From the NCBI GenBank assembly GCA_015488485.1, contig WFNR01000064.1, positions 6,916 through 70,915 on the forward strand: a stretch of DNA of 64,000 nucleotides. The letters run 5' to 3'. The position numbers were made by a program, and so were the translations under genes. This document shows, piece after piece, positions 37,402 to 54,069 of this stretch (positions are counted from its first letter, which is position 1; each line of letters starts with the position of its first letter). The notes below the pieces were generated by a model. The model saw only the letters and a program-made list of their open reading frames with translations. It was not told where the DNA came from and did not search any database. The stretch is from Cyclobacteriaceae bacterium (lineage in GTDB: Bacteria; Bacteroidota; Bacteroidia; Cytophagales; Cyclobacteriaceae).

Positions 37402-37467
37402 AAAATCATTTTTTTCTATAACAAAGTTAGCCGATAAAAGCGGTATAAGAAATGCTTTTTACACGAG

Positions 37468-37620
37468 CTACAGCAGATAAAAGAGAAGAAAGAGCAACAG
37501 CAAAAAAATGGCAATAAACTGGAATAAACGGTTGGGGCGGGGGAACTCATAGCCACATACCGGACAGGTTTTGGCCGCCTTATCGATCTTCATGGCGCAA
37601 GACGGGCACTCTTTTTTCAT
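37468..37620 (-). CDS. small zinc-ribbon plus TM protein (50 aa), not in the supplied ORF track
   Basis: Hand translation: MKKECPSCAMKIDKAAKTCPVCGYEFPRPNRLFQFIAIFLLLLFLLFYLL. It has two CxxC pairs and a C-terminal hydrophobic helix. Confidence 0.5.
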   Translation of the reverse strand: MKKECPSCAMKIDKAAKTCPVCGYEFPRPNRLFQFIAIFLLLLFLLFYLL

Positions 37621-37670
37621 GGCGGCAATTTAAACCAAAATTCTTAAATTTGATTGACAAATACACTGCT

Positions 37671-37907
37671 ATGGGTTGTCCGTCCGGAAAAAGGGGATAT
37701 TTCAGCGAGGGCGAAGTGCAGGAAGCGCTGATCCGTTCGCAGATAGGATTTGCCAGACCGGCTGTCAACTATTACCGCTGTGATGACTGTGGCGATTATC
37801 ACCTGACCTCGCAAGGGGAGCGGCACCCACTGCTGGACGAGCCTGATACCCGCGATCGCATTAAACGTGAGCAGTGGGAACAAGAATGGCACAATCGCTT
37901 TAAGTAA
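37671..37907 (+). CDS. small Cys-containing (zinc-ribbon-like) protein
   Basis: MGCPSGKRGYFSEGEVQEAL...YYRCDDCGDYHLTS, with a CP...K N-terminus and a CxxC knuckle. ATG at 37671. Confidence 0.55.
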   Translation: MGCPSGKRGYFSEGEVQEALIRSQIGFARPAVNYYRCDDCGDYHLTSQGERHPLLDEPDTRDRIKREQWEQEWHNRFK

Positions 37908-37934
37908 CAGAAGAGCGGGAAGGCTCCTGCGGTA

Positions 37935-38045
37935 TTAATGGCAGTTGAAAGATGTATGATTGCAGATTTTTGATTTTTCCAACTTCCATTATCATACATC
38001 TAACCTCAGTCTTCCGGCCTCAGACTTCAGTCCTCCGGCCTCAAT
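37935..38045. repeat. dispersed intergenic repeat, copy D, with perfect 11-bp hairpin and a duplicated 12-mer tail
   Basis: AGATGTATGAT (37950-37960) is the inverted repeat of ATCATACATCT (37991-38001). The loop contains CAGATTTTTG. The tail carries CTTCCGGCCTCA and CCTCCGGCCTCA. Confidence 0.7.
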
Positions 38046-38199
38046 CATCCTTATGCTCCAGGTACTTTTTGGTAATAAAGTAGCGGTAGGCAATAATCAC
38101 CTTGTCGAATTTGCTCAGCTTATTCAAATCACGCTGGCTATAGCGGGGTAGCAGGTATTTGTTGAGCCTGGCCAGTGCACGGAAGAAGATTTTTATCAT
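38041..38199 (-). CDS. possible small basic protein (52 aa), not in the ORF track
   Basis: Hand translation: MIKIFFRALARLNKYLLPRYSQRDLNKLSKFDKVIIAYRYFITKKYLEHKDD. Divergent from the 38294 gene. Its stop overlaps the tail of repeat copy D. Confidence 0.35.
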   Translation of the reverse strand: MIKIFFRALARLNKYLLPRYSQRDLNKLSKFDKVIIAYRYFITKKYLEHKDD

Positions 38200-38259
38200 C
38201 GCGAAGATTTTAACTGCAAAAATCCAAATCTTTTATTGAAAAAGCTCGTTATTCGTATG

Positions 38260-38267
38260 TAGGTTTG
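38260..38267 (+). promoter_or_regulatory. candidate Bacteroidota -7 box TAGGTTTG
   Basis: Matches TAnnTTTG 27 nt upstream of the ATG at 38294. A TTG lies about 21 nt further upstream. Confidence 0.3.
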
Positions 38268-38293
38268 TACGTTTAACAAGTTTTTTTAATTCT

Positions 38294-39202
38294 ATGTATA
38301 AGATAGATCCCGAGTATATTGCTTTCCTGGAAAGCTGGCATCAAATCATGTATATCCTGGCCGGTTTATCCCTGGCCATGTCATTAGGTATTTTTTTCTA
38401 CCACAAAATCAAAGTTGCCGCTATCAAAACCTACAAAGGCAAGTACGATTATATCCTCATGCACCAGGTAAGAGCCTATCAGTATGTAGTGTATGCCTTT
38501 GCAGCCGCCTTGTTTTTTTACGGCAATACCATAGGTGATGCATTTATCGTAAAGAGTATAGTTTATGTCTTTGTGCGGGCCTTTATCAGTTTGTGTGTGG
38601 CTACACTGGTGGCCTATGTTTCTTACCTTATTCTTAAATTCTACTACCCGGGTGTCATGGACAAGCAGTTGCGCAAGCTACGCTATGCCCCACGCATATC
38701 TTCGGCCGGCAATGAAATGCGTCTGCTTAGCGAGGAAGAAGAAGACGTGCACCTGGATGCCGGTATGCAGGCCGAGGAGAATGTGTTTTCAGTAGATTAC
38801 GATGTATGGGTAGATGAAAAAACCGGTGAGGTGAAAATCGAGAAATATGCTGGTTATCTGGAAGCGCTGGAATGCGGCTCGTGCGGCTTCAAAACACTTA
38901 CCCTGCAAAGCGAAGAGATTGTAAAACCGGCAACAGAGAAAGAAGAAGGCGAACTCATCAGGCACTATAAATGCAAGTATTGCGGGGCTGAACGCCATAC
39001 CAAATACCCCATCGCCCGTATTATCAAATCCGAGTCAGAATACAAACTACCCGATGATTATGTGCTGAAAGGACAGCGCAAGGTAAAGTCCATCATGATA
39101 GAGATTATCTCTACCAAAGGCGATAAAAAGGAGTATTTCTTCCAGAACACCAAGCAAGCCAGCGAATTCCTGGCTCAATTCGATTTCGACAAGGACGCTT
39201 AG
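38294..39202 (+). CDS. hypothetical membrane protein with C-terminal Cys4 zinc-ribbon-like domain
   Basis: Three N-terminal TM helices, an acidic linker, and the pairs CGSCG...CKYCG. Confidence 0.7.
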   Translation: MYKIDPEYIAFLESWHQIMYILAGLSLAMSLGIFFYHKIKVAAIKTYKGKYDYILMHQVRAYQYVVYAFAAALFFYGNTIGDAFIVKSIVYVFVRAFISLCVATLVAYVSYLILKFYYPGVMDKQLRKLRYAPRISSAGNEMRLLSEEEEDVHLDAGMQAEENVFSVDYDVWVDEKTGEVKIEKYAGYLEALECGSCGFKTLTLQSEEIVKPATEKEEGELIRHYKCKYCGAERHTKYPIARIIKSESEYKLPDDYVLKGQRKVKSIMIEIISTKGDKKEYFFQNTKQASEFLAQFDFDKDA

Positions 39203-39264
39203 GCGATTTTTTGGCCCGATTATGGTTATTTTTGTTAAAGCGTAGGCTTTGTTGTGCCTGATTT

Positions 39265-41397
39265 ATGAATAAACAAACCGTTGATATGATCAAGAAACAA
39301 TTGCTTTATATACTGCCGTTGGCATTGCTGGCAGCCGGTTTTGCTTTGTTGCCTTTTCGCTCCGATGAACTTAAGCCTATCGTGCCGGCTGTTGAAGAAC
39401 CTGCTTTCGAGCTGGCCTTCCCGGTCAATGATACCATCACCATTCTAAAGCCTGAGCGCAAAAACAAGGCCGAGACCCAAATGGTGGTACGCCTGCTGGA
39501 TGCCTACCACTACCGCAAGCTGCCGCTCAACGATTCGGTTTCCAATGTTGTCTATCAAAACTACCTGGATGCCCTGGACAATATGCGCCTCTACTTTACC
39601 GCTGCCGATATTGCCGCCTTCAAGCGCTACCAATACGAATTTGATGATTACCTGAAAGAAGGCGAGCTGGCAGCTCCTTATCAAATATTTGCCGTTTTCA
39701 AGGAGCGCTATTATCAGCGCCTGGCTTATGTAGATGAATTACTGGCGGCCAATAAGTTCGATTTTACCCTTGATGAAGAGTTCGTGTTCGACCGCGACAG
39801 CCTGCCCTGGCCGGCCGATGAAGCAGCCATGAACGAAGTGTGGCGCAAGTATATCAAAAACGAACTACTGAACCTGAAACTCACCGGCAAGACTACCGAA
39901 GAAGCCATAGAGGTGCTGCAAAAGCGCTACAAGCAATACAAGAAGGTGATAGCACAGTACAAGTCATCGGATGTGTATCAGGTGTTTATGAACAGCTATA
40001 CCGAGACCTACGATCCGCATACCAGCTATTTTAACCCCATTACGGCCGAGAATTTCGATATTGAAATGAGCAAATCGCTGGAAGGGATAGGTGCCCGCCT
40101 CAGCAAAGATGGCGATTACACGGTGGTAGTAGGGGTGATACCAGGTGGGCCGGCTTTTAAGAGTAATCAGATACACGAAAACGACAAGATTGTTGGCGTA
40201 GGCCAGGGCGAGGACGGAGAGATCGTAGATGTAGTGGGCTGGCGCAACGATGACGTGGTGCAATTGATCCGCGGTAAAAAGGGCACGGTGGTGCGCTTAA
40301 GCATCCTGAAGGCCACCGATGGACCGGGCGCAACGCCTACCATTGTTACCCTGGTGCGCGATAAGGTGAATATTGAAGATGCCCGTGCAGAAAGCAAGGT
40401 ATATGAGTTTCTTTATAATGACAAGGTTTTTAAACTGGGGGTAATCAATATCCCATCCTTTTACAAAGACTTTCAGGCCGCCCGCATGGGCAATGCCAAT
40501 TTCAACTCCACCACCCGGGATGTGCGCAAGTTGCTGGCCGACTTGAAAAAGCAACAGATAGACGGCCTGCTCATCGACCTGCGAAGAAATGGCGGAGGCG
40601 CCCTCGATGAAGCCGTAGAGCTTACCGGCCTGTTCATCAAAGACGGCCCTGTAGTGCAGGTGCGCGACTATCAGGGTCGCCTGAGTGTAGAGAAAGATCA
40701 GGATGATGGGGTGTACTTTGATGGCCCTCTGACCGTACTTACCAGCCGCCTGAGTGCCTCAGCTTCGGAAATCTTTGCGGCCGCTATTCAGGACTACCAG
40801 CGAGGCCTGGTAGTAGGTGAGCAGTCGTTTGGCAAAGGCACCGTGCAAAACCTCATAGGACTGCAACGCTATGTGCCGCAAGAGGAAGAAAAACTCGGCC
40901 AGCTTAAACTCACCATAGCCAAGTTTTACCGGGTAAGTGGCGGTAGCACCCAGCACAAAGGGGTAAGTCCCGACATAGAAATGCCATCACGCTATGACAA
41001 GTCGGTGGTGGGGGAGAGCGCCTATCCCAGTGCCCTGCCGTGGGATCATATTGCGCCCGGTAAGTACCGCCCGGTGAAAATTGTGGACAAGCAGTTGATT
41101 AACAAGTTGCGTAAGCAATACAAGCAACGCCTTAAAGATGACCCCGATTTGCAGCAATTGGTAAATGAAGCCGAGCGCATGCTGGCCAACCAACGCAAAA
41201 AGAGCGTATCGCTCAATGAGGCCAAACGTAAAGCCGAGCAGGAAGAGGAAAACAAACTGAAGCAACAAAAAGATGAGTCGGTTTATACCAAACCGGAACC
41301 TGACGATAGTCCGCCCAAAGAGCTAAAACTCAAAGATTTGTACCTGGAAGAGAGTTTGTTTATTTTGGCTGACATGGTGAACCAACTCAATGCCTGA
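39265..41397 (+). CDS. carboxy-terminal processing (tail-specific) protease, peptidase S41
   Basis: PDZ-like region (GARLSKDGDYTVVVGVIPGGPA). S41 catalytic region (LIDLRRNGGG, TSRLSASASEIFA, GKGTVQ). Long C-terminal extension as in Prc. Confidence 0.9.
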   Translation: MNKQTVDMIKKQLLYILPLALLAAGFALLPFRSDELKPIVPAVEEPAFELAFPVNDTITILKPERKNKAETQMVVRLLDAYHYRKLPLNDSVSNVVYQNYLDALDNMRLYFTAADIAAFKRYQYEFDDYLKEGELAAPYQIFAVFKERYYQRLAYVDELLAANKFDFTLDEEFVFDRDSLPWPADEAAMNEVWRKYIKNELLNLKLTGKTTEEAIEVLQKRYKQYKKVIAQYKSSDVYQVFMNSYTETYDPHTSYFNPITAENFDIEMSKSLEGIGARLSKDGDYTVVVGVIPGGPAFKSNQIHENDKIVGVGQGEDGEIVDVVGWRNDDVVQLIRGKKGTVVRLSILKATDGPGATPTIVTLVRDKVNIEDARAESKVYEFLYNDKVFKLGVINIPSFYKDFQAARMGNANFNSTTRDVRKLLADLKKQQIDGLLIDLRRNGGGALDEAVELTGLFIKDGPVVQVRDYQGRLSVEKDQDDGVYFDGPLTVLTSRLSASASEIFAAAIQDYQRGLVVGEQSFGKGTVQNLIGLQRYVPQEEEKLGQLKLTIAKFYRVSGGSTQHKGVSPDIEMPSRYDKSVVGESAYPSALPWDHIAPGKYRPVKIVDKQLINKLRKQYKQRLKDDPDLQQLVNEAERMLANQRKKSVSLNEAKRKAEQEEENKLKQQKDESVYTKPEPDDSPPKELKLKDLYLEESLFILADMVNQLNA

Positions 41398-41409
41398 TAA
41401 TTATGCCAC

Positions 41410-44400
41410 ATGAGTGAAGAGCTCCTAAAAGCGATCGTCAAGCTCTTTGCCATTGTGGCCAAAGAGCGCATCACTGATGCCGAGCGCAGCAATGTTCGCG
41501 ATTTTCTGGCGATTCATCTCAGTCACGAACTCATACCAGAGTATATGGAGCTGTTCGAACAGCTCATAAAAGAAACAGGTAGCGATTTTCTCGAAAATAT
41601 TGAACACCCCGATGCCGATACCAAAGAATTTGTTGGCGACTGGGCCAATATTATGGCTCTTTGTCGGCTCATTAACCAGGGGCTTACCAAGCAGCAGAAG
41701 ATCGTCCTGTTGCTTAAGCTGATTGAGCTTATGCTGCAAGACGGTAAGATATCCGAACGGCAGAGCAATCTGATCTTTTATATCGGCAGCACCATCAAGA
41801 TTACCCAGGAAGAGATAGACCTGATAATTGCTTTTCTGCAGGCCACTACACCGGCCGATTTGCGAGGCAATCATTTTCTGGTGGTGGACAACAACCAGGA
41901 AAAATATACATACCGCTGCAAGCATATTATCAGGCCACGGATTTTCGGCTACCTTTTCGTGTTACGGATACCGGGCGAAGAAACCTATTTTATCAAATAC
42001 CTGGGCAATATGGCCCTGACTCTCAACGGTCATCATTTCCGTAGCCATAAGACCTATGTTTTTCCTCCGGGCAGCACTATCCGCGGGCAGAATATGCGCC
42101 CCTTGTTTTACTCGGAGGTGGTCAGTGAATTTATCTACAACGAAGAGGCCAGCCGTCTTAGCTTTATCGCCCGCGATATCTCGCACACCTTTCGCTCCGG
42201 CTACAAAGCGCTGCACAAAATCAATATAGCGGAAGAAGGCGGCCGCCTGATCGGGCTGATGGGGGTGTCCGGCTCGGGCAAGTCCACCCTGATGAGCATC
42301 CTCAACGGCATGATTAAGCCCAGCTCGGGCCGGGTAACCATCAATGGCCTGGATGTACATACCCAGCAGGATGAATTGAATGGGGTTATCGGTTACGTGC
42401 CGCAAGACGACTATCTGATAGAAGAGCTGACCGTGTACGAGAACCTGTACTATGCGGCCCGCCTCACCTTTGCCAACCACAGCAAGGAGCAATCGCATCG
42501 CCTGGTGATGCAGACCCTGAAAAGCCTGGGGCTCACCGAAATCAAAGACCTGGTAGTGGGCAACCCCCTGAACAAAACCATTAGCGGAGGGCAGCGCAAG
42601 CGCATCAATATCGGCCTGGAGCTGCTGCGCAAGCCAGAGATTCTGTTTGTCGATGAGCCAACCTCCGGTCTGTCATCACGCGATTCGGTCAATATCATGG
42701 ACCTGCTCAAGGAGCTTTCGCTGCAGGGAAAAATGGTATTCGTGGTTATCCACCAGCCCTCATCCGATATCTACAAAATGTTTGATACGCTCATTATTCT
42801 GGATGTGGGCGGCTACCAGATATACTATGGCAACCCCGAAGAGGCGCTGGTGTACTTCAAGACCATGGTTAATATGGTGAACAAGGAGCAGGGTGCCTGT
42901 ACCCTGTGCGGCAATATCAACTCAGAATTGATTTTTGATATTATCGAGGCCCGCGTGGTGGATGAATACGGCAAGTTGACCGACAAGCGTAAAATACCTC
43001 CGGAACAGTGGTACGAACTGTTTTTGCAACACATAAAAAGGCCGCAAATACAGGAGCGCCATGATAAGCTCAACATAGCCCAGGCAATACCTTCACGATT
43101 CAAGCAGTTTTTGGTATTTGCCGCCCGTGATGTCAAAACCAAGCTCAAAAACAACCAGTACCTGTTGTTTACCTTTACCGAAGCACCCTTGCTGGGCTTT
43201 TTTCTGGCTTTTCTGGTTAAATATTACGAGACCATTGACGACCAGAAAGTCTATTTGTTTGTCCGCAATATGAATATTCCGGTGTACTTCTTTATGGCGG
43301 TGATTGTGGCTTTGTTTATGGGGCTTACCCTTAGTGCCGAGGAGCTGCTCAAAGACCGGATGATCCTGCAGCGCGAGCGCTTTTTGCACCTAAGCCGAAT
43401 GAGCTACCTGGTGTCCAAGATGGGCATCCTGCTGGTTATATCAGCCATACAAACCATTAGTTTTGTGTTGGTGGCGCATTATATTCTGGAAGTCAAAGGC
43501 ATGCATTTTACCACGTGGATGATGCTCTTCAGCCTGTCGTTTTATGCCAATGTGCTGGGGCTGATTATCTCTTCGGCCTTCAATTCGGCCGTCACCGTTT
43601 ATATCCTGATTCCTATTTTGATAATCCCGCAACTGATTCTGAGCGGTGTTATCATCAACTTTGAAAATTTTAACTACCGGGTAACCAGCGAAAAGCACAT
43701 TCCTTACAGTGGTGACCTGATCGCTTCACGCTGGGCCTACGAGGCGCTGGCCGTGGAGCAGTTTACCCAAAACCAATACAACAGGATTTTTTATCCCTAT
43801 GACCGGGAGATAAACCTGAGTAATTATAAACGCAACTATTACATTCCCGAACTGGAAAACCAACTGGGTAATGTATTCAACAATATCAACAACACCACCG
43901 ATCCGCAGGTAGTGGCCAGTGTAGATCGCAGCCTGCGTATCCTGCGCAACGAAATTATGCGCGAATTGCACAAGGTAGGCCATGAAGAGTTGCCTGAGTA
44001 TGTCAAGCTCACCCGCGAGTTGTTCGATGAACAAACCTACCGGGCTACCAAGGAATTTCTAACCGTGCTCAAGCAATTTTACGCTATCAAATCAAGCCGC
44101 TGGCTACAGAAAAAAGACAGCGTGATTAACCATTGGGTATCTCTACCCGGTGGTCAGCAAAAGCTGGAGGCTTTGCGCAATGCTTATCATAATGAAAAAA
44201 TGGCCGAAATGGTGGAAAACCGCTATGCCCAGGAGCGCGTGCAGGTACTCGATGACGGCTTACGCAGAAAAATATATCCGATCTACGATAAGCCGCGCAC
44301 CTATAAATATTTCGACATCGATACCAAATTCTACATGCCGGAAAAAGTAGCCTTCGGACAGGTATTTAGCACTTACTGGACCAATGTGGTGATTATCTGG

Positions 44401-44529
44401 ATCATGACGGTGTTCCTTGTGGTTATCTTGTATTTCGACTGGTTGCGCAAGCTTGTGGATGGCATTGCCGAATTCAGGGAATACCGGCTCAAAAAATTTC
44501 GCGCCATGCTATCCGCTGGTAAAAAATAA
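41410..44529 (+). CDS. fused ABC transporter (ATPase plus ABC-2/ABCG-type permease) with an extra ~270-aa N-terminal region
   Basis: Walker A GVSGSGKST, signature ISGGQRKR, Walker B ILFVDEPTSGL. Six or so C-terminal TM helices and one terminal TM. Confidence 0.85.
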   Translation: MSEELLKAIVKLFAIVAKERITDAERSNVRDFLAIHLSHELIPEYMELFEQLIKETGSDFLENIEHPDADTKEFVGDWANIMALCRLINQGLTKQQKIVLLLKLIELMLQDGKISERQSNLIFYIGSTIKITQEEIDLIIAFLQATTPADLRGNHFLVVDNNQEKYTYRCKHIIRPRIFGYLFVLRIPGEETYFIKYLGNMALTLNGHHFRSHKTYVFPPGSTIRGQNMRPLFYSEVVSEFIYNEEASRLSFIARDISHTFRSGYKALHKINIAEEGGRLIGLMGVSGSGKSTLMSILNGMIKPSSGRVTINGLDVHTQQDELNGVIGYVPQDDYLIEELTVYENLYYAARLTFANHSKEQSHRLVMQTLKSLGLTEIKDLVVGNPLNKTISGGQRKRINIGLELLRKPEILFVDEPTSGLSSRDSVNIMDLLKELSLQGKMVFVVIHQPSSDIYKMFDTLIILDVGGYQIYYGNPEEALVYFKTMVNMVNKEQGACTLCGNINSELIFDIIEARVVDEYGKLTDKRKIPPEQWYELFLQHIKRPQIQERHDKLNIAQAIPSRFKQFLVFAARDVKTKLKNNQYLLFTFTEAPLLGFFLAFLVKYYETIDDQKVYLFVRNMNIPVYFFMAVIVALFMGLTLSAEELLKDRMILQRERFLHLSRMSYLVSKMGILLVISAIQTISFVLVAHYILEVKGMHFTTWMMLFSLSFYANVLGLIISSAFNSAVTVYILIPILIIPQLILSGVIINFENFNYRVTSEKHIPYSGDLIASRWAYEALAVEQFTQNQYNRIFYPYDREINLSNYKRNYYIPELENQLGNVFNNINNTTDPQVVASVDRSLRILRNEIMRELHKVGHEELPEYVKLTRELFDEQTYRATKEFLTVLKQFYAIKSSRWLQKKDSVINHWVSLPGGQQKLEALRNAYHNEKMAEMVENRYAQERVQVLDDGLRRKIYPIYDKPRTYKYFDIDTKFYMPEKVAFGQVFSTYWTNVVIIWIMTVFLVVILYFDWLRKLVDGIAEFREYRLKKFRAMLSAGKK

Positions 44530-44541
44530 TGCCGGCCGGGC

Positions 44542-44571
44542 TTGTATAATTCCGAAACAGCTTTAGCTTTG
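44542..44571 (+). promoter_or_regulatory. candidate trp operon promoter (-33 TTG, 19-nt spacer, -7 TAGCTTTG)
   Basis: TTG at 44542-44544 and TAGCTTTG at 44564-44571, immediately upstream of the leader ORF. Confidence 0.4.
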
Positions 44572-44578
44572 CCGCATA

Positions 44579-44644
44579 ATGATGACACAAGCTATATACT
44601 GGTGGTGGTATGCTCCTTTTTCCCACAGGGAAGATAGGGCATAG
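44579..44644 (+). CDS. trpL: trp operon leader peptide (21 aa, three consecutive Trp codons)
   Basis: ATGATGACACAAGCTATATACTGGTGGTGGTATGCT... translates to MMTQAIYWWWYAPFSHREDRA. TGG codons at 44600-44608. Confidence 0.7.
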   Translation: MMTQAIYWWWYAPFSHREDRA

Positions 44645-44670
44645 CCCAGGTATATGGTAAAGCATACACG

Positions 44671-44706
44671 CGGCTTGTCGGACTTCCCGGCAAGCCGTTT
44701 TTTTTT
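44671..44706 (+). terminator. intrinsic terminator / attenuator upstream of trpE
   Basis: GGCTTGTCGG (44672-44681) pairs with CCGGCAAGCC (44687-44696), 10 bp including one G-U. Followed by a G and nine T. It lies 24 nt before the trpE ATG. Confidence 0.75.
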
Positions 44707-44729
44707 GACAGAATTATTAAAAACCAAAA

Positions 44730-46115
44730 ATGAAAATTCAAACACATATTCATCGCCAGCTCTCCGACACGCTTACTCCGGTCAATGCCCTGCTGGCCGT
44801 GCGTGAGCAATACCCGCTGGTGATGCTGCTCGAGAGCTCCGATTATCAGAGCAAAGAAAACAGCTACTCGTTTCTGGGGTTTGCCCCGCTGGCGTCAGCC
44901 CGGGTATCGAAGGGGCGTTTTAGCAGTACCCTTGGGCACGATTTCGACCTGCTGCATGGTGATACCGATCTGGTGGCGGCTATGGATGCTTTTCGTCAGT
45001 CGTTTACCTTGCTTAACGAGGATCAGGAAGTGCAGCGCTTTAATGGCCTGTTCGGTTACACCGGTTTCGAGGCCGTGGCCTGGTTTGATGAGCACAGTTT
45101 TACCGGACAGGAGGTAGCAGGACTGATACCCGACCTGCAATTTCATTTCTTTGCCTATCTGGTTGTTTTCGACCACTATAACAGCCGGCTTACCATTCTG
45201 GAAAACCAACTGGAAGACAGCCCTTCACAACTGGAAGAAGTTATTACCTTAATCAACAAGCCGGGGCGGCCGGTGTACCCGTTCCGGGCCGGGGCAGCCA
45301 CCGCCAATATGAGCGATGCCGACTATATGCAGTTGGTGAGCAAAGCCAAAGCGCATTGTCAGCGTGGTGATGTCTTCCAGTTGGTGTTGTCGAGGCGCTA
45401 CCGCCAGTCCTACCGGGGTGATGATATCAATGTGTACCGGGCGCTGCGGGCTATCAATCCATCGCCTTATCTGTTTTATTTCGATTATGGCGATTTTAAA
45501 ATCATGGGCTCCTCACCCGAGGCGCATTTGATCATCAAAGGCTGGCAGGCCGAGATACACCCCATTGCCGGTACGGTATTGCGCACTGGCGATAATGAAA
45601 CCGACCATGCAGCCGCTTTGCAACTGGTAGCTGATCCTAAGGAGAATGCCGAGCACAACATGCTGGTGGACCTGGCACGCAACGACCTGGCACGTCACTG
45701 CCGTAATGTGCGGGTGTCGCGTAACAAGGTGATCCAGTACTTCAGCCATGTAATTCATCTGGTGTCAAAAGTAGTGGCCGATAAGCCGCCAGCAGTCAGC
45801 TCTTTTCGCGTCTTTGCCGACACCTTTCCGGCCGGTACCCTCACCGGAGCCCCCAAGCACAAGGCCATTGAGCTCATTCATACCTATGAGCCGCAGCCAA
45901 GGGGTTTTTATGGTGGGGCAATCGGTTATATGAGCTTTAGCGGAGATATGAACATGGCCATTACCATCCGTACGGTGATGGCCAAAGACAACAATTTGTA
46001 CTACCAGGCAGGAGCCGGTATTGTAATCGACTCACAGGAAGAAAAAGAGCTGCTGGAAGTGCAAAATAAACTGGCGGCTATTCTGGCAGCTATTAAAATG
46101 GCCGAAGAACTATGA
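44730..46115 (+). CDS. trpE: anthranilate synthase component I
   Basis: Chorismate-binding signature GTLTGAPKHKAIELI...RGFYGGAIGY. Confidence 0.95.
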   Translation: MKIQTHIHRQLSDTLTPVNALLAVREQYPLVMLLESSDYQSKENSYSFLGFAPLASARVSKGRFSSTLGHDFDLLHGDTDLVAAMDAFRQSFTLLNEDQEVQRFNGLFGYTGFEAVAWFDEHSFTGQEVAGLIPDLQFHFFAYLVVFDHYNSRLTILENQLEDSPSQLEEVITLINKPGRPVYPFRAGAATANMSDADYMQLVSKAKAHCQRGDVFQLVLSRRYRQSYRGDDINVYRALRAINPSPYLFYFDYGDFKIMGSSPEAHLIIKGWQAEIHPIAGTVLRTGDNETDHAAALQLVADPKENAEHNMLVDLARNDLARHCRNVRVSRNKVIQYFSHVIHLVSKVVADKPPAVSSFRVFADTFPAGTLTGAPKHKAIELIHTYEPQPRGFYGGAIGYMSFSGDMNMAITIRTVMAKDNNLYYQAGAGIVIDSQEEKELLEVQNKLAAILAAIKMAEEL

Positions 46116-46684
46116 GCAGGGTACTGATTATCGATAATTTCGACTCGTTTACCTACAACCTGGTACACCTGGTTGAGCAGGTGAGTGGCGTGCGGCCCGA
46201 TGTGCTACGCAACAACAGCCGGGCGCTGGACGATCTCTCTGACTATACGCACCTCATTCTCTCGCCCGGCCCCGGCATTCCGCAGGAGGCCGGCCGCCTG
46301 CTGGAGGTAATCGGGCGTTATGCCAGCGAAAAAGCCATGCTGGGTGTGTGTCTGGGCCATCAGGCCATTGCCGAGGCCCTTGGCGGTAAACTGCGCAACC
46401 TGGACAAGGTGTATCATGGGGTAAGCGATACCATGAAGATTATCAAGCTGGACGAGCCCCTTTATGCCGGTATGCAGGACTTGTTTACGGCCGCCCGTTA
46501 CCACTCCTGGGTGGTGGATAAGCAGGCCTTACCGGCTGAATTTGACATCAATTGTATAGATGGCGAAGGTGAGATTATGGGCCTGAGCCACCGGCAATAC
46601 CGCCTGAAAGGGGTGCAATTTCATCCGGAAAGCTACTTGTCGGAGTTCGGTGACAAGATTATGCATAACTTTTTGAAAATGTGA
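46112..46684 (+). CDS. trpG: anthranilate synthase component II (glutamine amidotransferase)
   Basis: Class I GATase motifs GVCLGHQAI and GVQFHPES. Confidence 0.95.
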   Translation: MSRVLIIDNFDSFTYNLVHLVEQVSGVRPDVLRNNSRALDDLSDYTHLILSPGPGIPQEAGRLLEVIGRYASEKAMLGVCLGHQAIAEALGGKLRNLDKVYHGVSDTMKIIKLDEPLYAGMQDLFTAARYHSWVVDKQALPAEFDINCIDGEGEIMGLSHRQYRLKGVQFHPESYLSEFGDKIMHNFLKM

Positions 46685-46712
46685 TTATTAAAAATATTTA
46701 TTTAGAGTATCT

Positions 46713-47699
46713 ATGAAAGAAATAATCAACCTGTTGATCGAGCATAAACCGCTGAACAGCGCCCAGGCACGCGACACCATGATGCGCATCGCCAACGAGG
46801 AGTTTAGCGATGCCGAGATAGCCGCCTTTCTCACTACTTACCTGATGCGCGCCATTACCCTGGACGAGCTGGCCGGCTTTCGTGATGCCCTGATGGAGCT
46901 GGCCGTAAAGCCCGATCTGGGGCAGGAGCCGGCCATTGACCTGTGCGGAACCGGTGGCGATGGTAAAAACACCATTAATATCTCCACCTTAACGGCCCTG
47001 GTAGTGGCGGCAGCCGGCTACCGGGTCATCAAGCATGGCAATTATGGCGTTTCTTCAGTGTCCGGTTCATCCAATGTGCTTGAATACCTGGGTTACACCT
47101 TTACTGCCGATACCGGCCGGCTGCAGCGTCAGCTTGAAAAACACAATATTTGCTTCCTCCATGCCCCGCTATTTCATCCGGCTATGAAAGCCGTAGGGCC
47201 GGCCCGCAGAAGCCTGAAAGTAAAGACATTCTTTAATTTGCTTGGGCCTCTGGTTAATCCGGCCGCACCTTCGCATCAACTGGTGGGCGTGTATAGCTTG
47301 CAGGTAGCCCGTCTGTATCAAAACTTTTTGCCTTTGCTGAACAGGCAGTTTGCCATTGTGCACGCCCTCGATGGTTACGATGAAATCACCCTGACCGGTG
47401 CGGCCAAGGTAATTGGCAATGATAAGGAGCAAATGCTTAGCGCCAGCGATTTCGGCTATTCAACCACCCGTCCGGAAGACTTGTTTGGCGGTAATACGGT
47501 AGCCGAGGCGGCTGAAATATTTATACAGGTATTAAACGGCCGGGGCACTACCGCCCAACAACAGGTAATCACCGCTAATGCTGCCCTGGCCATCCAATGC
47601 TTCGAGCCGCAGCGCCCCTTGGCCGAATGTGTGGCGCAGGCCGAAGAGGCCTTGCAAAGCGGCCGTGCTTTACAGGTTTTTAAAGGATTAACACAATGA
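46713..47699 (+). CDS. trpD: anthranilate phosphoribosyltransferase
   Basis: DLCGTGGDGKNTINIST and KHGNYGVSS motifs. Confidence 0.95.
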   Translation: MKEIINLLIEHKPLNSAQARDTMMRIANEEFSDAEIAAFLTTYLMRAITLDELAGFRDALMELAVKPDLGQEPAIDLCGTGGDGKNTINISTLTALVVAAAGYRVIKHGNYGVSSVSGSSNVLEYLGYTFTADTGRLQRQLEKHNICFLHAPLFHPAMKAVGPARRSLKVKTFFNLLGPLVNPAAPSHQLVGVYSLQVARLYQNFLPLLNRQFAIVHALDGYDEITLTGAAKVIGNDKEQMLSASDFGYSTTRPEDLFGGNTVAEAAEIFIQVLNGRGTTAQQQVITANAALAIQCFEPQRPLAECVAQAEEALQSGRALQVFKGLTQ

Positions 47700-48493
47700 G
47701 CAATATCCTGGATACCATCATCGCCCATAAACGCACCGAGGTAGCGCAGACCCAAAAGCAAAAGCCCCTGACCGCCCTGATAAAGGAAGCAGGCCATAGG
47801 CCGGCCCCACGTAGCATGCGCAGCGCTATCCTCAACGGCAGCGGCCTGATAGCCGAGTTTAAGCGGGCTTCACCCTCCAAAGGTTTGATTCGTCCGCAGG
47901 CCGATCCGGCTGCCATAGCTGCCTCTTATGAAAAGGCAGGCGCCTCGGCCGTATCGGTGCTTACCGACCGCAAGTTTTTCCGGGCCCAAAACAGCGACCT
48001 GCCGGCTGTTGCAGACACTGTGGAATTGCCGGTCTTGCGCAAGGATTTTATAATTGATACCTATCAGGTTGCCGAAGCACGGGCCATGGGGGCCGACTGT
48101 ATCCTACTCATTGCATCCGTACTGACCAAAAGCCAGTTGGCCCAATTGCTGGACGTAGCCACCGACCTGGGACTGGAAGCGCTGGTAGAAGTGCACCGCC
48201 CCGAAGAACTTGATAAATTATGCGGCAGAGAGACACTGATAGGGGTGAACAACCGCAATCTGGATAATTTTACAGTAGATATACAGGTGTCGCTGGCACT
48301 GGCGCCCCTGCTGGGCGATACGGTGGTAAAAGTAACGGAAAGCGGACTGAGTAGTGCCAGTCACCTGCAAGAGTTGGTCAGAGCCGGCTTCAGCGGCTTT
48401 CTGGTGGGCGAGAACCTGATGCGTGCGGCTGACCCCGGAGCGGCCTGTGCTGATATGGTAGAAGCTATCAAACAAGCTAAAAATGCTGGTTAA
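47696..48493 (+). CDS. trpC: indole-3-glycerol phosphate synthase
   Basis: IAEFKRASPSKG, LRKDFIID and GVNNRNL motifs. Confidence 0.95.
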   Translation: MSNILDTIIAHKRTEVAQTQKQKPLTALIKEAGHRPAPRSMRSAILNGSGLIAEFKRASPSKGLIRPQADPAAIAASYEKAGASAVSVLTDRKFFRAQNSDLPAVADTVELPVLRKDFIIDTYQVAEARAMGADCILLIASVLTKSQLAQLLDVATDLGLEALVEVHRPEELDKLCGRETLIGVNNRNLDNFTVDIQVSLALAPLLGDTVVKVTESGLSSASHLQELVRAGFSGFLVGENLMRAADPGAACADMVEAIKQAKNAG

Positions 48494-49094
48494 AGTCTGT
48501 GGTATCACCGATCGGGAACAATACAGCCGGCTCGACAGCCTGGGGGTGGACATGCTGGGCCTAAACTTCTACCATGCCTCACCGCGTTATGTGGCGCCCG
48601 GAGATCCGGTAAGCCGCCTGTCCGGCAGGGCAAGCAAGGTGGGTATATTTGTCAACCCCTGTGTAGATCGCACGCTGGCTACTATCAAGGCCTGTGGTCT
48701 CGATTATGTGCAGTTGCATGGTGCCGAATCCGTGGCCTTTTGCAGGCAAATGAAAAAACATGCCGGTGTTATCAAAGCCTTTGGCATTAATGATGCCTTT
48801 GATTTTGCTGTGCTCAACGAGTACGCGACTACTGTTGACTACTTTCTTTTTGATACACGCAGCAGCCGCTATGGCGGCTCGGGGCGTAAGTTCAATTGGC
48901 AAAAACTGGCGGAGTATGATCTGGAGGTACCTTTCCTGCTAAGTGGCGGCCTGGCTCCTGACGACTGGCCGGCCTTGCGTGCTTTCAGTCATCCGCAATG
49001 GGCAGGCATAGATATTAACAGTGGTTTTGAGACAGGCCCCGGCAATAAAGACCTGGCAGCCGTGGCCGCTTTTTTAGAAAAGATAAAGTTATGA
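48483..49094 (+). CDS. trpF: phosphoribosylanthranilate isomerase
   Basis: MLVKVCGIT start, QLHG and LSGGL motifs. Confidence 0.9.
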   Translation: MLVKVCGITDREQYSRLDSLGVDMLGLNFYHASPRYVAPGDPVSRLSGRASKVGIFVNPCVDRTLATIKACGLDYVQLHGAESVAFCRQMKKHAGVIKAFGINDAFDFAVLNEYATTVDYFLFDTRSSRYGGSGRKFNWQKLAEYDLEVPFLLSGGLAPDDWPALRAFSHPQWAGIDINSGFETGPGNKDLAAVAAFLEKIKL

Positions 49095-50272
49095 AAAATC
49101 CTGACGAACAAGGTTTTTATGGTGAATACGGAGGCGCATTTGTACCGGAAATGCTTTACCCCAATGTAGCCGAATTACAGGCAAAATATCTGGAAATACT
49201 GGCACAAGCTGATTTCCAGCAGGAGTTGCAGCAGTTGTTGCATGCCTATGCCGGGCGGCCTAGTCCGTTGTATTATTCGGGCTATTTGTCTGCTAAATAT
49301 GGCGGTAAAATCTACCTCAAGCGCGAAGACCTGAATCACACCGGGGCGCACAAGATCAACAATGCCCTGGGTCAGATCCTGCTGGCGGCACGAATGGGTA
49401 AGCAAGAGATTATTGCCGAAACCGGTGCCGGACAGCATGGCGTGGCTACGGCTACCGCTGCCGCCCTGATGGGCATGCCCTGCAAGGTGTTTATGGGTGA
49501 GGTGGATATGGCCCGCCAGGCGCCCAACGTAGCACGCATGCGCATGCTGGGGGCCGAGGTGGTGGCCGCCACTTCGGGCAGTCGCACCCTTAAAGATGCC
49601 ACCAACGAGGCCATCCGCTACTGGATCAACAACCCGGAGGCCTACTACCTGATTGGCTCGGTGGTGGGGCCGCACCCGTACCCCGATCTGGTAGCGCGGC
49701 TGCAAGCTGTGATCAGCGCTGAACTGCTGGAGCAAGTGCCGGCACATTCCGGCCGGCCGCTACCCGATAAAGTGGTAGCCTGCATCGGGGGAGGTAGCAA
49801 TGCTGCCGGAGCCTTTTATCATTATATCGAACAGCCTGATGTGCAACTAATTGCCGTAGAAGCGGGAGGCAAGGGCATCGCCTCCGGGCAGTCGGCCGCC
49901 ACCAGCCAGTTGGGGAGTATAGGCATCATCCACGGTAGCCGCACCCTGTTGATGCAGGATGCAGACGGGCAGATTATTGAGCCGTATTCGATATCGGCCG
50001 GCCTTGACTATCCGGGAATCGGGCCTATGCATGCTCACCTGATCAGCAGCGGCCGGGCGCAGGTATATAGCATCAACGATGACCAGGCGCTGGCAGCCGG
50101 AGTGGCCTTGAGTCGCCATGAGGGTATCTTGCCTGCCCTGGAATCGGCTCATGCGCTGGCCGTATTGCCCGAGCTGGACATCCATCCCGATGACATAACC
50201 GTAGTGTGCCTTTCCGGCCGGGGCGACAAAGACTTACAGACTTATCTCGATTATTTACATATCAATGACTGA
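49091..50272 (+). CDS. trpB: tryptophan synthase beta chain
   Basis: LKREDLNHTGAHKINN PLP-lysine motif and GGGSNA. Confidence 0.95.
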   Translation: MKNPDEQGFYGEYGGAFVPEMLYPNVAELQAKYLEILAQADFQQELQQLLHAYAGRPSPLYYSGYLSAKYGGKIYLKREDLNHTGAHKINNALGQILLAARMGKQEIIAETGAGQHGVATATAAALMGMPCKVFMGEVDMARQAPNVARMRMLGAEVVAATSGSRTLKDATNEAIRYWINNPEAYYLIGSVVGPHPYPDLVARLQAVISAELLEQVPAHSGRPLPDKVVACIGGGSNAAGAFYHYIEQPDVQLIAVEAGGKGIASGQSAATSQLGSIGIIHGSRTLLMQDADGQIIEPYSISAGLDYPGIGPMHAHLISSGRAQVYSINDDQALAAGVALSRHEGILPALESAHALAVLPELDIHPDDITVVCLSGRGDKDLQTYLDYLHIND

Positions 50273-51044
50273 TTTACAGCAATTTATACAAAGTAAAAAA
50301 GAGGGTATTCTGAACATATTCTTTACAGCCGGTTACCCGCACCTGGACAGCACTTTGGTCATAGCCCGGCAGCTGGCTGCCGCGGGGGTAGAGCTGGTGG
50401 AAATCGGCATGCCCTATTCCGATCCGCTGGCTGATGGCGCCACCATTCAGCAAAGCAGCGAGCAGGCCTTGCGCAATGGCATGAATCTGGCAATCCTGTT
50501 TGAGCAGGTAAAGCAAATCAAAGAAGAAACAGGTTTACGCATCGTGCTGATGGGTTATCTGAATCAGATGCTGCGCATGGGTGAGGAGCGCTTTTTGCAA
50601 AATTGCCGGGATAGTGGCGTTGACGGACTGATAATCCCCGATTTACCGATGGAGGTCTATCAAAGTCAGTACCAGGAGTTGTTTGGCCGTTATCAGCAGG
50701 CCATTTCCTTTTTGATAACCCCACGCACATCCGTGGAGCGCATCAGGCTGGCCGACAGGCTGAGCAGCGGTTTTGTATATCTGGTAGCCGACAACAGTAT
50801 TACCGGAAAGATAACTGATGACTTTAGCCCGCGACAGGAAGCCTATTTCAAGCGAATCAGAGATATGCAACTGACATCACCGGTGCTGATTGGCTTCGGT
50901 ATTCGTACCGCCCGGCACTTCCGGGCAGCTTGTCGTTTTGCCCAGGGGGCTATTGTAGGCAGTGAATTTATCCGGCAACTCAGTGGTGGCGTGGACGATG
51001 AAAAAATCAGGCGATTTGTAAAAAATATTGGACGTAAACCATAA
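50265..51044 (+). CDS. trpA: tryptophan synthase alpha chain
   Basis: VELVEIGMPYSDPLADGATIQ motif. Confidence 0.95.
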   Translation: MTDLQQFIQSKKEGILNIFFTAGYPHLDSTLVIARQLAAAGVELVEIGMPYSDPLADGATIQQSSEQALRNGMNLAILFEQVKQIKEETGLRIVLMGYLNQMLRMGEERFLQNCRDSGVDGLIIPDLPMEVYQSQYQELFGRYQQAISFLITPRTSVERIRLADRLSSGFVYLVADNSITGKITDDFSPRQEAYFKRIRDMQLTSPVLIGFGIRTARHFRAACRFAQGAIVGSEFIRQLSGGVDDEKIRRFVKNIGRKP

Positions 51045-51133
51045 GAATGGAAGTGGCACTAGCGCCAAACAACCGGTTACATAAAGGGTCTGGCCGGGAG
51101 AGTTGGCAAGTCTTATTTTAGCAGAAAAAAACG

Positions 51134-52501
51134 ATGAATAAAACCATTACCTTTTTGTTTATGTTGACCACGGTGGCACAAGTTGTGGCCCAACCCGTGC
51201 CACCGGCTGCTGACAATCGGCTCTATGAGATGATTGAGGCCGTTTCGCCCGCCAGAATAGAACAGGATATCCGCAAGCTGGTTAGCTTCGGCACGCGTAA
51301 CACTCTCTCCGATACTGTTTCCGGCACCCGTGGTATTGGTGCAGCCCGCAGGTGGATAAAAAGTGAATTTGAACGGATAAGCCGGCAATGTGGCGGTTGT
51401 CTTACTGTATTCGAGCAACGCACCCTGGTGCCGGGCAATCCGGAGTCGCGCATCAAGGAGGATACCTGGGTGGTGAACATTATTGCTATACAAAAAGCCG
51501 CCAAGCCTGCAAACCGCTATGTGATTATAAGTGGTGATATCGACTCAAGGGCCTCAAATGCCAGCGATGGCCTTACCGATGCCCCTGGCGCCAACGACAA
51601 CGCCTCGGGGATGGCCGGTGTGTTGGAAGCCGCCCGGGTGTTAAGTCAATATACTTTTAACGCCAATATTGTTTATGCCGGCTTGTCGGGTGAGGAGCAG
51701 GGCTTGTATGGCGGCAAGCACCTGGCGCAAAAAGCTAAGGATGAAGGCTGGCAGATAATTGGTGTGCTGAATAACGATATGATTGGTAATATCGAAGGCA
51801 TAGACGGGGTAATAGCCAACAACTCCTTCCGTATTTTTTCAGAACCCACCCCTGTTACCGAAACGGAACGTCAAAGACGCATGCGCAGGTTTTACGGAGG
51901 TGAAGTAGATGGCATATCCCGCCAATTGGCACGTTATGTAGCCCGTCTAACCGACCAGTATATGGTAAATCTTGAGCCGATTATGATTTACCGGCTCGAT
52001 CGCTTCGGGCGTGGTGGCCACCACCGGCCGTTCAATGATTTGGGCTATGCCGGCATCCGTATTATGGAAACGCACGAGAACTACAACCGTCAACATCAGG
52101 ATATTAGAGTCGAAAACGGTATCAAATACGGAGATGTAATAGAAGGGGTAAACTTTGACTATGCTGCCAAGCTAACGGCCGTAAATGTAATTACTTTGGC
52201 CTCTCTTGCCTGGGCGCCTGCCGCTCCACGTCAGGTAAAGATAGGGGGGGCAGTGCAACCTCATACCACTCTTACCTGGGAGTCACCGGCCGATGACAGC
52301 CGGGTGGCCGGCTACAAAATATACTGGCGCGAAACTACCGCACCCCAATGGCAACATAGCCGGTTTGTTGGCAAGGTAAATGAATTTACCTTGCGCGGTC
52401 TCATAATCGACAACTATTTGTTTGGGGTGGCGTCTGTAGATGCCGAAGGCCATGAGAGTGTAGTGGTTTTCCCGTCAGGATTAATCCGTAACAAGCGGTA
52501 A
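51134..52501 (+). CDS. M28 family metallopeptidase with C-terminal fibronectin-III-like domain
   Basis: GANDNASGMAGVLE and SGEEQGLYG metal-ligand motifs. Signal peptide. C-terminal Y.IYWR... FN3-like segment. Confidence 0.85.
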   Translation: MNKTITFLFMLTTVAQVVAQPVPPAADNRLYEMIEAVSPARIEQDIRKLVSFGTRNTLSDTVSGTRGIGAARRWIKSEFERISRQCGGCLTVFEQRTLVPGNPESRIKEDTWVVNIIAIQKAAKPANRYVIISGDIDSRASNASDGLTDAPGANDNASGMAGVLEAARVLSQYTFNANIVYAGLSGEEQGLYGGKHLAQKAKDEGWQIIGVLNNDMIGNIEGIDGVIANNSFRIFSEPTPVTETERQRRMRRFYGGEVDGISRQLARYVARLTDQYMVNLEPIMIYRLDRFGRGGHHRPFNDLGYAGIRIMETHENYNRQHQDIRVENGIKYGDVIEGVNFDYAAKLTAVNVITLASLAWAPAAPRQVKIGGAVQPHTTLTWESPADDSRVAGYKIYWRETTAPQWQHSRFVGKVNEFTLRGLIIDNYLFGVASVDAEGHESVVVFPSGLIRNKR

Positions 52502-52530
52502 ATTTCCAGGCTTTTGCTATTTTAGCTTTT

Positions 52531-53082
52531 GTGAAAGCACGGCTGTTGTTTTTGTTCGTTATATTTTTTATCCGGCATTTGGCTTTAGCACAATCTTTGC
52601 CACAAGGCGACTACAACTGGCAGACGGAAGCCGATTACCGGCAGTACGAAGATGAAGTGCTGGCCACCATAGAATGGCTGGAAGAAAACCCCATTGCCAC
52701 CACCGATAACGATACCAAGGCCATGACGGCCTTTGTCCTTGCCTGGTTGGCAGGCGTGCCCTATATCACAGTTGCCTATAATGATATTTTTCTGGAAAGC
52801 ATTGCCAACAGCAAGAAGTACCGGTTTGCCGAAAAATTCCGGGTTACCTATTTGTTGGGAAAAGCCTATTACTATATCAAACATCCGGACAACCCTGATG
52901 AGGCGGAAGCTTGTGCCCGTGGCATAACCGGTATGGTGAAGGTTTATGAAGAACTGAAAAAAGTGGACCCTTCGGTACAACACTGGCGCCTGGAGAAGTA
53001 CAGTCGTCTATACCACAATGGCAAACTACTGACCTACGTAAGGCGCCAGTTATCCAAAGAAGAAAATCCGGTATTTTATTAA
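52531..53082 (+). CDS. hypothetical secreted protein
   Basis: GTG start and a signal-like N-terminus ending ALAQ. No recognised motif. Confidence 0.55.
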   Translation: MKARLLFLFVIFFIRHLALAQSLPQGDYNWQTEADYRQYEDEVLATIEWLEENPIATTDNDTKAMTAFVLAWLAGVPYITVAYNDIFLESIANSKKYRFAEKFRVTYLLGKAYYYIKHPDNPDEAEACARGITGMVKVYEELKKVDPSVQHWRLEKYSRLYHNGKLLTYVRRQLSKEENPVFY

Positions 53083-53088
53083 GACATT

Positions 53089-54069
53089 ATGGAGCAACTA
53101 GCGAAGAAAGTTTATCAGGCGGCCGAGTCGGCTGCTCAGCGCATTGCTCCTTACATTTATCCGACCCGGGTCATTTATTCACCTTATCTATCCGATCTGT
53201 GCAATGGCCGGGTATATCTGAAGCCCGAGTGCCTGCAAACAACGGGCTCTTTCAAGCTACGCGGGGCGCTTAATAAGGTGCTTTCATTAAAAAATTCCGG
53301 CTATCGCAAAGCGGTAGTCACGGCCTCTACCGGCAACCATGCCGCTGCGATGGCCTTTGCCTGCCGGCAGGCGGGCCTGCAAGCGATTATCTACATGCCG
53401 GAGACGGCCTCGCAGGTCAAAATCAACAACCTGCAGTCGTACCCCAATGTGGAGGTACGCCTTACCGGACAGGACTCGCTGGCCAGCGAGCTGGCGGCAC
53501 GCCAGGCAGCCGAACGGCAGGGATTGGCTTACATTTCTCCCTATAATGATGAAGCGATTATAGCCGGACAGGCTACGGTAGGGCTGGAATTACTGGCGGA
53601 GGTTGACCGGCCTGATGCTGTGTTGGTGCCGGTAGGAGGTGGCGGACTGGTATCCGGTATTGGCGGGGTGGTGAAGCATACTTCCCCGGCCTCACAAATC
53701 ATAGGTTGTCAACCAGAGCATTCGGCCGTCATGTATCATTCGGTGGTGGCCGGCCGGATACTCGATATACCCTCCAAACCTACGCTATCGGATGGCACAG
53801 CCGGTGGGCTGGAGCCGGATTCGCTTACCTTTACTTATGCACGTGCTTTTATAGATGATTTTGTTTTGCTCAGCGAACCGGCCATCAGGCAGGGTATAGC
53901 CACCACGCTGCAGTACCACCGCCTGGTGATAGAGGGGGCGGCCGCCCTGAGTGTAGCGGCTCTGCTGGCAAACCCTGGTCGGTTTGCCGGCCAGACTGTG
54001 GTGCTGGTGCTCAGCGGCAACAAACTGCCCTGGCCACTACTGCAGGAGATAAGTGCTGAGATGGGTTAA
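53089..54069 (+). CDS. PLP-dependent threonine/serine dehydratase family protein
   Basis: PLP-lysine motif TGSFKLRGA and glycine loop PVGGGGLVSG. Confidence 0.85.
   Translation: MEQLAKKVYQAAESAAQRIAPYIYPTRVIYSPYLSDLCNGRVYLKPECLQTTGSFKLRGALNKVLSLKNSGYRKAVVTASTGNHAAAMAFACRQAGLQAIIYMPETASQVKINNLQSYPNVEVRLTGQDSLASELAARQAAERQGLAYISPYNDEAIIAGQATVGLELLAEVDRPDAVLVPVGGGGLVSGIGGVVKHTSPASQIIGCQPEHSAVMYHSVVAGRILDIPSKPTLSDGTAGGLEPDSLTFTYARAFIDDFVLLSEPAIRQGIATTLQYHRLVIEGAAALSVAALLANPGRFAGQTVVLVLSGNKLPWPLLQEISAEMG

Follow-up and report, generated by a model that had tools for sequence, protein, structure and literature searches.

A probable ribosome-mediated attenuator of trpEGDCFBA in a Cyclobacteriaceae bacterium, a divergent member of the Bacteroid-trp family

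The region immediately upstream of trpE in the stretch of DNA analysed here (64,000 nucleotides, hereafter the window) very probably holds a ribosome-mediated leader-peptide transcription attenuator of trpEGDCFBA, a divergent member of the Bacteroid-trp family. The basis is computed, namely sequence features, alternative folds with their energies, and conservation and covariation in relatives, from which we infer translation of the leader, the start site, stalling of the ribosome and the response to tryptophan. A joint, more specific proposal, on which we consider the odds about even, is that the Trp leader is translated from a truly leaderless transcript in the Cytophagales-like clade and the Spirosomataceae and that, Bacteroidota-wide, the antiterminator is centred on the leader stop codon, spans the terminator loop and enters the 3' arm. 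A WW(W) leader upstream of trpE is in itself not new for Bacteroidota, being already the Rfam family Bacteroid-trp, RF01692.

The trp operon, its leader and its promoter

The features that frame the attenuator are the following:

44542-44571, + strand: Bacteroidota sigma-A-type promoter, with -33 element TTG (44542-44544), 19-nt spacer and -7 box TAGCTTTG (44564-44571)
44579-44644, + strand: trpL-like leader ORF of 21 amino acids, MMTQAIYWWWYAPFSHREDRA, from the sequence and the ORF list, putatively translated
44600-44608, + strand: three consecutive Trp codons, UGG UGG UGG, from the sequence, the predicted sensing site
44642-44644, + strand: leader stop codon UAG
44670-44706, + strand: intrinsic terminator (segments 3:4), with 12-bp stem 44670-44681/44687-44698, loop ACUUC and T9 at 44698-44706
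44730-46115, + strand: trpE (Pfam)
46112-46684, + strand: trpG (Pfam)
46713-47699, + strand: trpD (Pfam)
47696-48493, + strand: trpC (Pfam)
48483-49094, + strand: trpF (Pfam)
49091-50272, + strand: trpB (Pfam)
50265-51044, + strand: trpA (Pfam)

Every gene of trpEGDCFBA (44730-51044) has a Pfam match, with E-values from 1e-35 to 1e-79, and the genes are tightly packed, their start and stop codons overlapping or nearly so. The gene 5' of the leader, identified by Pfam, encodes an ABC transporter (41410-44529) of 1039 aa with ABC_tran and ABC2_membrane domains, whose N-terminal 140 residues gave a weak, sub-threshold TerB-like match. At the other end of the operon, between 51044 and 51134, there is no convincing intrinsic terminator, and an M28 peptidase gene with an fn3 domain (51134-52501) lies on the same strand 90 nt past trpA and might be co-transcribed; in F. 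psychrophilum an elastinolytic protease has been reported to be co-transcribed with the trp genes (PMC6414381). Another observation on this stretch is that TGGTGGTGG is present five times in the window, where shuffles predict 0.47; the other four copies are at 25675-25683(-), 36303-36311(-), 41879-41887(+) and 58833-58841(-), the copy at 41879 being inside the span of the ABC-transporter ORF.

The leader ORF reads ATG ATG ACA CAA GCT ATA TAC TGG TGG TGG TAT GCT CCT TTT TCC CAC AGG GAA GAT AGG GCA TAG, and the hairpin of the terminator begins 25 nt past its stop codon. Eight of the 12 pairs of the terminator stem are G-C, and the energy of the hairpin is -22.3 kcal/mol; no other terminator-like site in 36000-55900 comes close to it in strength. 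From the end of the T tract to the trpE ATG (44730) there are 23 nt. The initial annotation, made by eye, had described a 21-codon ORF with three consecutive TGG codons, which the sequence and the ORF list bear out. It had also given a GC-rich hairpin with a T9 tract, correctly, with a stem of 10 bp and a gap of 24 nt to trpE, which need to be amended to 12 bp and 23 nt, and a TTG-N19 promoter element, which is present and ends 7 nt, not 8, before the leader ATG.

This promoter element, TTG-N19-TAnnTTTG, has a single match in the 64-kb window on both strands, where 0.88 would be expected by chance, and a sigma-70 promoter scan, whose model is irrelevant for Bacteroidota, found nothing upstream of the leader. 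In Flavobacterium (F. psychrophilum), the sigma-A -7 box TAnnTTTG occupies positions -12 to -5 (PMC9723704), and because of this placement, transcription in the window is predicted to start at about A44576, 3 nt before the ATG, the box TAGCTTTG ending 7 nt 5' of that codon. In six clade relatives a script placed the end of the TAnnTTTG box 5-6 nt before the leader ATG, for a predicted 5' UTR of 1-2 nt, and the box was also recognised by eye before the leader ATG in two loci, L001 and L002. The suggestion in the initial annotation that the leader mRNA may be nearly leaderless thus gains support from the published position of the box and from these six relatives, and a predicted 5' UTR of 0-3 nt, with the -7 box ending 4-7 nt before the leader ATG, is supported as a conserved, clade-specific feature; in other clades, Flavobacterium members included, the predicted 5' UTR is 12-18 nt. 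In four Spirosomataceae loci (L177, L197, L215, L221) exactly 4 nt separate the -7 box TACATTTG from the leader ATG, for a predicted 5' UTR of 0 nt. L002 (at about 395-420) has GTG as the homologous start codon at this near-leaderless site, an unusual codon for leaderless initiation. Leaderless mRNAs make up about 5.5% of the 890 F. psychrophilum mRNAs with a mapped 5' UTR (PMC9723704). F. psychrophilum RNA-seq runs, available as assembled contigs only, had flat depth and were uninformative on transcript starts and ends; the window sequence itself occurs only in hydrothermal-vent metagenomes, and a search for it in RNA runs returned no match.

Alternative folds of the leader and the proposed mechanism

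Besides the terminator, folding of the leader RNA gave the following elements:

44591-44658, + strand: large hairpin P1 (segments 1:2), from the MFE fold, with the Trp codons and the bases that follow them in its 5' strand and the purine tract and stop-codon region in its 3' strand
44628-44646, + strand: antiterminator 5' strands (segment 2), from the masked, truncated MFE fold, consisting of GGGAAG (44628-44633), GGCA (44638-44641) and AGCC (44643-44646)
44672-44688, + strand: antiterminator 3' strands (segment 3), consisting of GGCUUGUC (44672-44679, terminator 5' arm) and CUUCCC (44683-44688, loop and first 2 nt of the 3' arm)

The leader is strongly folded, with z = -4.9 for the region 44570-44712 and none of 200 shuffles as stable. 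P1, at -34.8 kcal/mol, corresponds to the hairpin of Rfam RF01692, and its helices are retained in the RNAalifold consensus of the clade. In our model P1 is the anti-antiterminator, because the antiterminator 5' strands are its 3' strand, and it is possible that it also serves as a pause hairpin.

In the antiterminator GGGAAG pairs with CUUCCC, and GGCA and AGCC pair with GGCUUGUC, leaving a small local hairpin at 44650-44669; its energy, this hairpin included, is -23.4 kcal/mol, comparable with the -22.3 kcal/mol of the terminator. It was obtained by folding the stretch of RNA that a ribosome halted at the Trp codons would leave exposed on its 3' side, from 44617-44622 to about 44689; with 44617, 44620 or 44622 as the first base and 44689 as the last, it is the MFE structure. 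In these folds it forms only when the stalled ribosome masks the 5' half of P1. Masked and truncated folding thus recovered a pairing that the initial annotation had not been able to see by eye, and the search for alternative structures that it had proposed yields P1, terminator and antiterminator (-34.8, -22.3 and -23.4 kcal/mol, respectively). Since they share strands, the three constitute mutually exclusive 1:2, 2:3 and 3:4 pairings. Two narrower or competing pairings were set aside. The helix between GGGAAG and the terminator loop is too narrow to be the whole antiterminator, the larger part of which is GGCA/AGCC with GGCUUGUC, and a pairing of 44571-44575 (GCCGC) with 44670-44674, seen in some folds, was rejected for involving bases upstream of the predicted start site.

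For the full-length leader, plain MFE folding with a ribosome mask never gave the antiterminator, the complete terminator always winning; once the terminator is fully transcribed, its state has an advantage of about 15 kcal/mol, the mask notwithstanding. Because the completed terminator state is the more stable one, antitermination must be kinetic, as in E. coli. The leader stop codon (44642-44644) is located within the antiterminator 5' strand (44628-44646), and a ribosome at this codon would have a footprint of about 44627-44654; with this footprint masked the terminator folds. Because the footprint covers the antiterminator 5' strands, a ribosome at the stop codon is predicted to block the antiterminator. 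The inner 7-bp part of P1 (44618-44634, -6.7 kcal/mol), which begins 10 nt downstream of the last Trp codon, may stay paired during a stall, in which case it would impede helix a, the terminator-loop helix of the antiterminator.

We envisage that transcription would start at about 44576 and that a ribosome would translate the 21-codon leader while RNA polymerase moves on downstream. With charged tRNA-Trp plentiful, the ribosome would reach the UAG at 44642-44644, its footprint (about 44627-44654) covering the antiterminator 5' strands; after its release P1 (44591-44658) would re-form, the terminator (44670-44698 and T9) would fold, and transcription would stop before trpE. When tryptophan is scarce, the ribosome would stall on UGG UGG UGG (44600-44608), holding the 5' strand of P1, and 44628-44646 would be freed to pair with the emerging 44672-44688, that is, with the terminator 5' arm, the loop and the first two bases of the 3' arm. 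With this antiterminator formed, the terminator could not close in time and the polymerase would read into trpE. If the leader were left untranslated, P1 would form and termination would be the default.

Conservation and covariation among relatives

For the comparison, trpE loci were taken from representative genomes and metagenomes, 63 of them from Bacteroidota, of which two (L028 and L059) come without upstream sequence. A survey of related genomes for WW(W) mini-ORFs upstream of trpE had been suggested in the initial annotation, and it returned one in 60 of the 61 Bacteroidota loci with upstream sequence and in 8/8 Planctomycetota loci. In the Planctomycetota MAGs (L064-L071) a WWW mini-ORF lies about 90-200 nt upstream of trpE (e.g., MIIRAGQNRWWWCSLKGWHAA), followed in 6/8 by a GC-rich terminator according to the terminator scan (L064-L067, L069, L070). 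The nearest TrpE relatives (L001-L003, L081-L086; 60-67% TrpE identity) are mostly labelled Cyclobacteriaceae, with other Bacteroidota MAGs among them, and in these relatives the layout is that of the window, base for base and with the same spacing. In the clade the order is -7 box, ATG and about eight codons, WWW, pyrimidine tract, purine tract, UAG and terminator, the latter of the form CGGCUUGYUG-loop-CAGCAAGCCG followed by a T run, with a stem that is conserved in relatives with compensatory changes. A DNA pattern of TGGTGG and the clade terminator retrieved the same design from Saprospiraceae, Prolixibacteraceae, Spirosomataceae and Bacteroidales, and removal of duplicates and filtering left 169 leader-plus-terminator units.

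The Prolixibacteraceae have two leader-peptide/terminator units in tandem before trpE, as in L145 (6198-6327 and 6345-6477) and also in L166, L171, L179, L184, L198, L204, L214 and L256. The first unit has a distinct peptide, M..NT.W.PWWGLL..., and its own terminator, GGCCTGCTT...AAGCGGGCT-T6, the second being the usual ...NWWWR.NFSQ.RG... leader; these may be tandem attenuators.

A simpler reading would be that the hairpin and T9 are the terminator of the upstream ABC-transporter gene and that the WWW mini-ORF is a chance occurrence with no regulatory role. Short ORFs by chance are indeed many, no other terminator is present between the end of that gene (44529) and 44670, and the hairpin probably also stops read-through from upstream. 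Nevertheless, in more than 100 other genomes trpE is preceded by mini-ORF and terminator together, whichever gene is upstream, and a promoter-like element separates the ABC-transporter gene from the leader. The clade alignment has invariant or near-invariant Trp codon columns amid variable flanking codons, and the 3' end of the leader can pair with the terminator, the two changing in concert. We regard this reading as very improbable and retain attenuation as the probable function of the unit.

The complementarity between leader and terminator was followed at three levels. First, the three-part antiterminator is the masked, truncated MFE structure in six of the seven clade leaders folded, the window included, and purine tract and terminator loop change together, from GGGAAG/CUUCCC in the window to GAGAAGAA/UUCUUCUC in L001 and L085, GAGAAAA/UUUUCUC in L003 and GAGAGA/UCUCUC in L086. 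Helix a is interrupted by a central mismatch in L081, L082 and L083; in L083 (858-984), moreover, there are only two Trp codons (TGG TGG CAG), against three in all others, and its purine tract is the least complementary to the terminator loop. On the nine-sequence clade alignment, A1, 82% of the antiterminator cells are paired, against 41-61% with the partners slid by 1-3 columns, and four antiterminator pairs have changed on both sides, a number reached by 25/500 shuffles; covariation within this clade is modest. Second, 44 sequences were aligned by a covariance model, R1, built from eight clade relatives with the window excluded; this alignment is independent of the antiterminator, none of whose pairs R1 contains. 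Here 64% of the antiterminator cells are paired, against 37-57% when slid, with 35 double-change cells against 16.6±4.5 in shuffles (0/500), the shuffle controls for covariation being ones that ignore phylogeny. Third, across 91 distinct terminator-apex types the duplex of a leader with its own apex has a mean energy of -10.6 kcal/mol, against -7.3 kcal/mol with the apices of other genomes (permutation p<5e-5), and masked, truncated folds of 93 distinct types have 12.8 nt of terminator arm and loop paired with the leader, whereas shuffled leaders reach 7.9 nt (Wilcoxon 3e-15). On the leader side, the bases involved cluster around the stop codon, within about 15 nt, with a median span of -10 to +2 nt in most lineages.

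These data also bear on the possibility that the nascent peptide itself acts, in a tnaC-like manner, its C-terminal R-E-E/D-R-G/A tail stalling the ribosome at the stop codon on free Trp. Within the clade the C-terminal end of the peptide is indeed conserved (REDRA, REERG, REEKV, REERR, REGRG). This conservation is explained by RNA pairing, because the tail codons are the purine tract that pairs and covaries with the terminator loop; the tail is entirely different in other clades of the same architecture, and a ribosome halted at the stop codon would cover the antiterminator, with no gain for a biosynthetic operon. We therefore give an acting peptide hardly any credence, and favour a ribosome that would sense tryptophan through its codons.

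A further alternative is an attenuator mediated by RNA only or by a protein, such as T-box-like tRNA sensing, a TRAP-like protein or a Trp riboswitch, with the ORF untranslated. In principle, some other factor could switch between the alternative structures, and translation of the leader is a prediction of our model. Nevertheless, Rfam scans of the leader region (E<=10) and of the whole window (at the gathering threshold) gave no relevant family, with neither T-box, riboswitch nor any other family matching the leader region; two tRNA genes on the minus strand (24622-24695 and 24788-24860) are the only gathering-level matches in the whole window. Most leaders have an in-frame start 7-11 codons before the UGG run and 2-4 in-frame UGG codons, and the stop codon is found inside the antiterminator 5' strand in most lineages, while the peptide sequence varies freely between clades, so that the conserved features are those that a ribosome reads. 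Such an attenuator is accordingly quite unlikely in our judgement, if a little less so than the two preceding alternatives, and control by a translating ribosome is the reading that we carry into the comparison with known systems.

Comparison with known attenuators

In Bacillus subtilis the trp genes are controlled through the TRAP protein or T-box (uncharged tRNA) sensors. The window shares with these systems the alternative terminator and antiterminator structures ahead of trpE, and differs from them in the sensor, which is a protein or an uncharged tRNA in B. subtilis and is proposed to be a translating ribosome here; in the leader region the Rfam scans revealed neither a (G/U)AG repeat array nor a T-box motif.

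Mycobacterial poly-Cys uORFs, which are translated from leaderless transcripts, are also involved in amino-acid sensing. Together with the trp attenuators described for Actinobacteria, those of Streptomyces venezuelae trpEG and Corynebacterium trp (cited in PMC4833913), they have in common with the window element a small regulatory reading frame in which runs of codons serve to sense an amino acid. The differences are in phylum, promoter type and RNA sequences, and the leaderless start of the Bacteroidota attenuator is a prediction.

The E. coli trpL attenuator, in the Yanofsky model, has tandem Trp codons, the pairings 1:2, 2:3 and 3:4, a kinetic choice between them, and a terminator before trpE. 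The initial annotation had called the window a trpL-type architecture, and this description holds well, since an intrinsic terminator between leader and trpE, exclusive pairings and a stop codon so placed that a ribosome terminating there would mask segment 2 were all found. Also shared are a short ORF with Trp codons and a terminator state that is thermodynamically favoured. On the other hand, the window has three Trp codons, where E. coli has two, no Shine-Dalgarno sequence and probably no 5' UTR; its antiterminator 5' strand contains the stop codon, whereas in E. coli it follows the stop; and its antiterminator extends through the loop into the 3' arm, whereas E. coli uses the 5' arm alone. 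The model of the enterobacterial Trp_leader family (RF00513) gave no match at E<=10 and there is no sequence similarity to it, so the window element works like that family and is not a member of it.

The closest known relative is Bacteroid-trp (RF01692), the 'Bacteroidete tryptophan peptide leader RNA' (Weinberg et al. 2010, Genome Biol 11:R31), whose motif is characterised in supplementary file 1 of that work as 'a loosely conserved hairpin'. The family has been mentioned for F. psychrophilum in later papers (PMC9723704 among them); there is a 2019 mention, and a 2021 transcriptome paper sees 'strong clues' for leader-peptide attenuation. Our literature search, which traced the family to its prediction in 2010, found no published experimental test of it. 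The likeness is extensive. The RF01692 consensus has UGGuGGUG, with the UGG codons in the 5' strand of its hairpin, and ends 3' with AAAGGCUUGUC; the window likewise has consecutive UGG codons (three) in a short ORF, a long, loosely conserved hairpin with UGG in the 5' strand (P1, kept in the clade consensus), the block GGCTTGTC at 44672-44679, matching the conserved 3' block AAAGGCUUGUC of Rfam, and a position immediately 5' of trpE (44730) in a Bacteroidota genome, the family being one that precedes trpE or trpB. In addition, the original seed of the family includes a Cyclobacteriaceae-type sequence, UUCUUUCC..GGAAG..UAG..AGCCCC.

The RF01692 model gave no match to the window at E<=10 in scans of 601 and 146 nt, nor in the whole window at its gathering threshold (49 bits). 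Because it also misses six of the eight relatives tested (L001, L085, L140, L145, L157, L162), this threshold is best read as an operational limit of the 2010 model; two of the fetched loci do match it, one from Flavobacterium (L011, 72 bits) and one from Bacteroidales (L186, 53 bits). The model R1, in turn, matches the window at 44579-44705 (61.9 bits, E of about 2e-8), its sole match in the 64 kb; both Rfam-positive loci are recovered as well, with scores of 59.6 bits (L186) and 31 bits (L011), in the positions that Rfam gives for them. Judged from these sequence models, the window element is a divergent member of Bacteroid-trp that falls below the operational threshold of Rfam. The 200 nt 5' of trpE can be annotated as a Bacteroid-trp-type Trp leader/attenuator, though missed by the Rfam model, and the same annotation applies to many genomes of Cytophagales, Saprospiraceae and Prolixibacteraceae, which a model rebuilt from the sequences gathered here would recover.

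What sets the present description apart from the family as deposited is the extent of the structure and the start of the transcript. The Rfam model covers only the first hairpin, stopping at the terminator 5' arm with no antiterminator annotated, and the leader of the window clade is predicted to be almost leaderless (0-3 nt), whereas Flavobacterium members have about 12-18 nt. General knowledge of trp regulation is unchanged by this work, its added value being a specific, testable antiterminator model and the prediction of a leaderless start. If true, these would give a phylum without Shine-Dalgarno initiation its first mechanistic model of attenuation by the ribosome, and a natural reporter for the coupling of leaderless translation to transcription, by way of a stop-codon-centred antiterminator mechanism so far undescribed for the Bacteroid-trp family.
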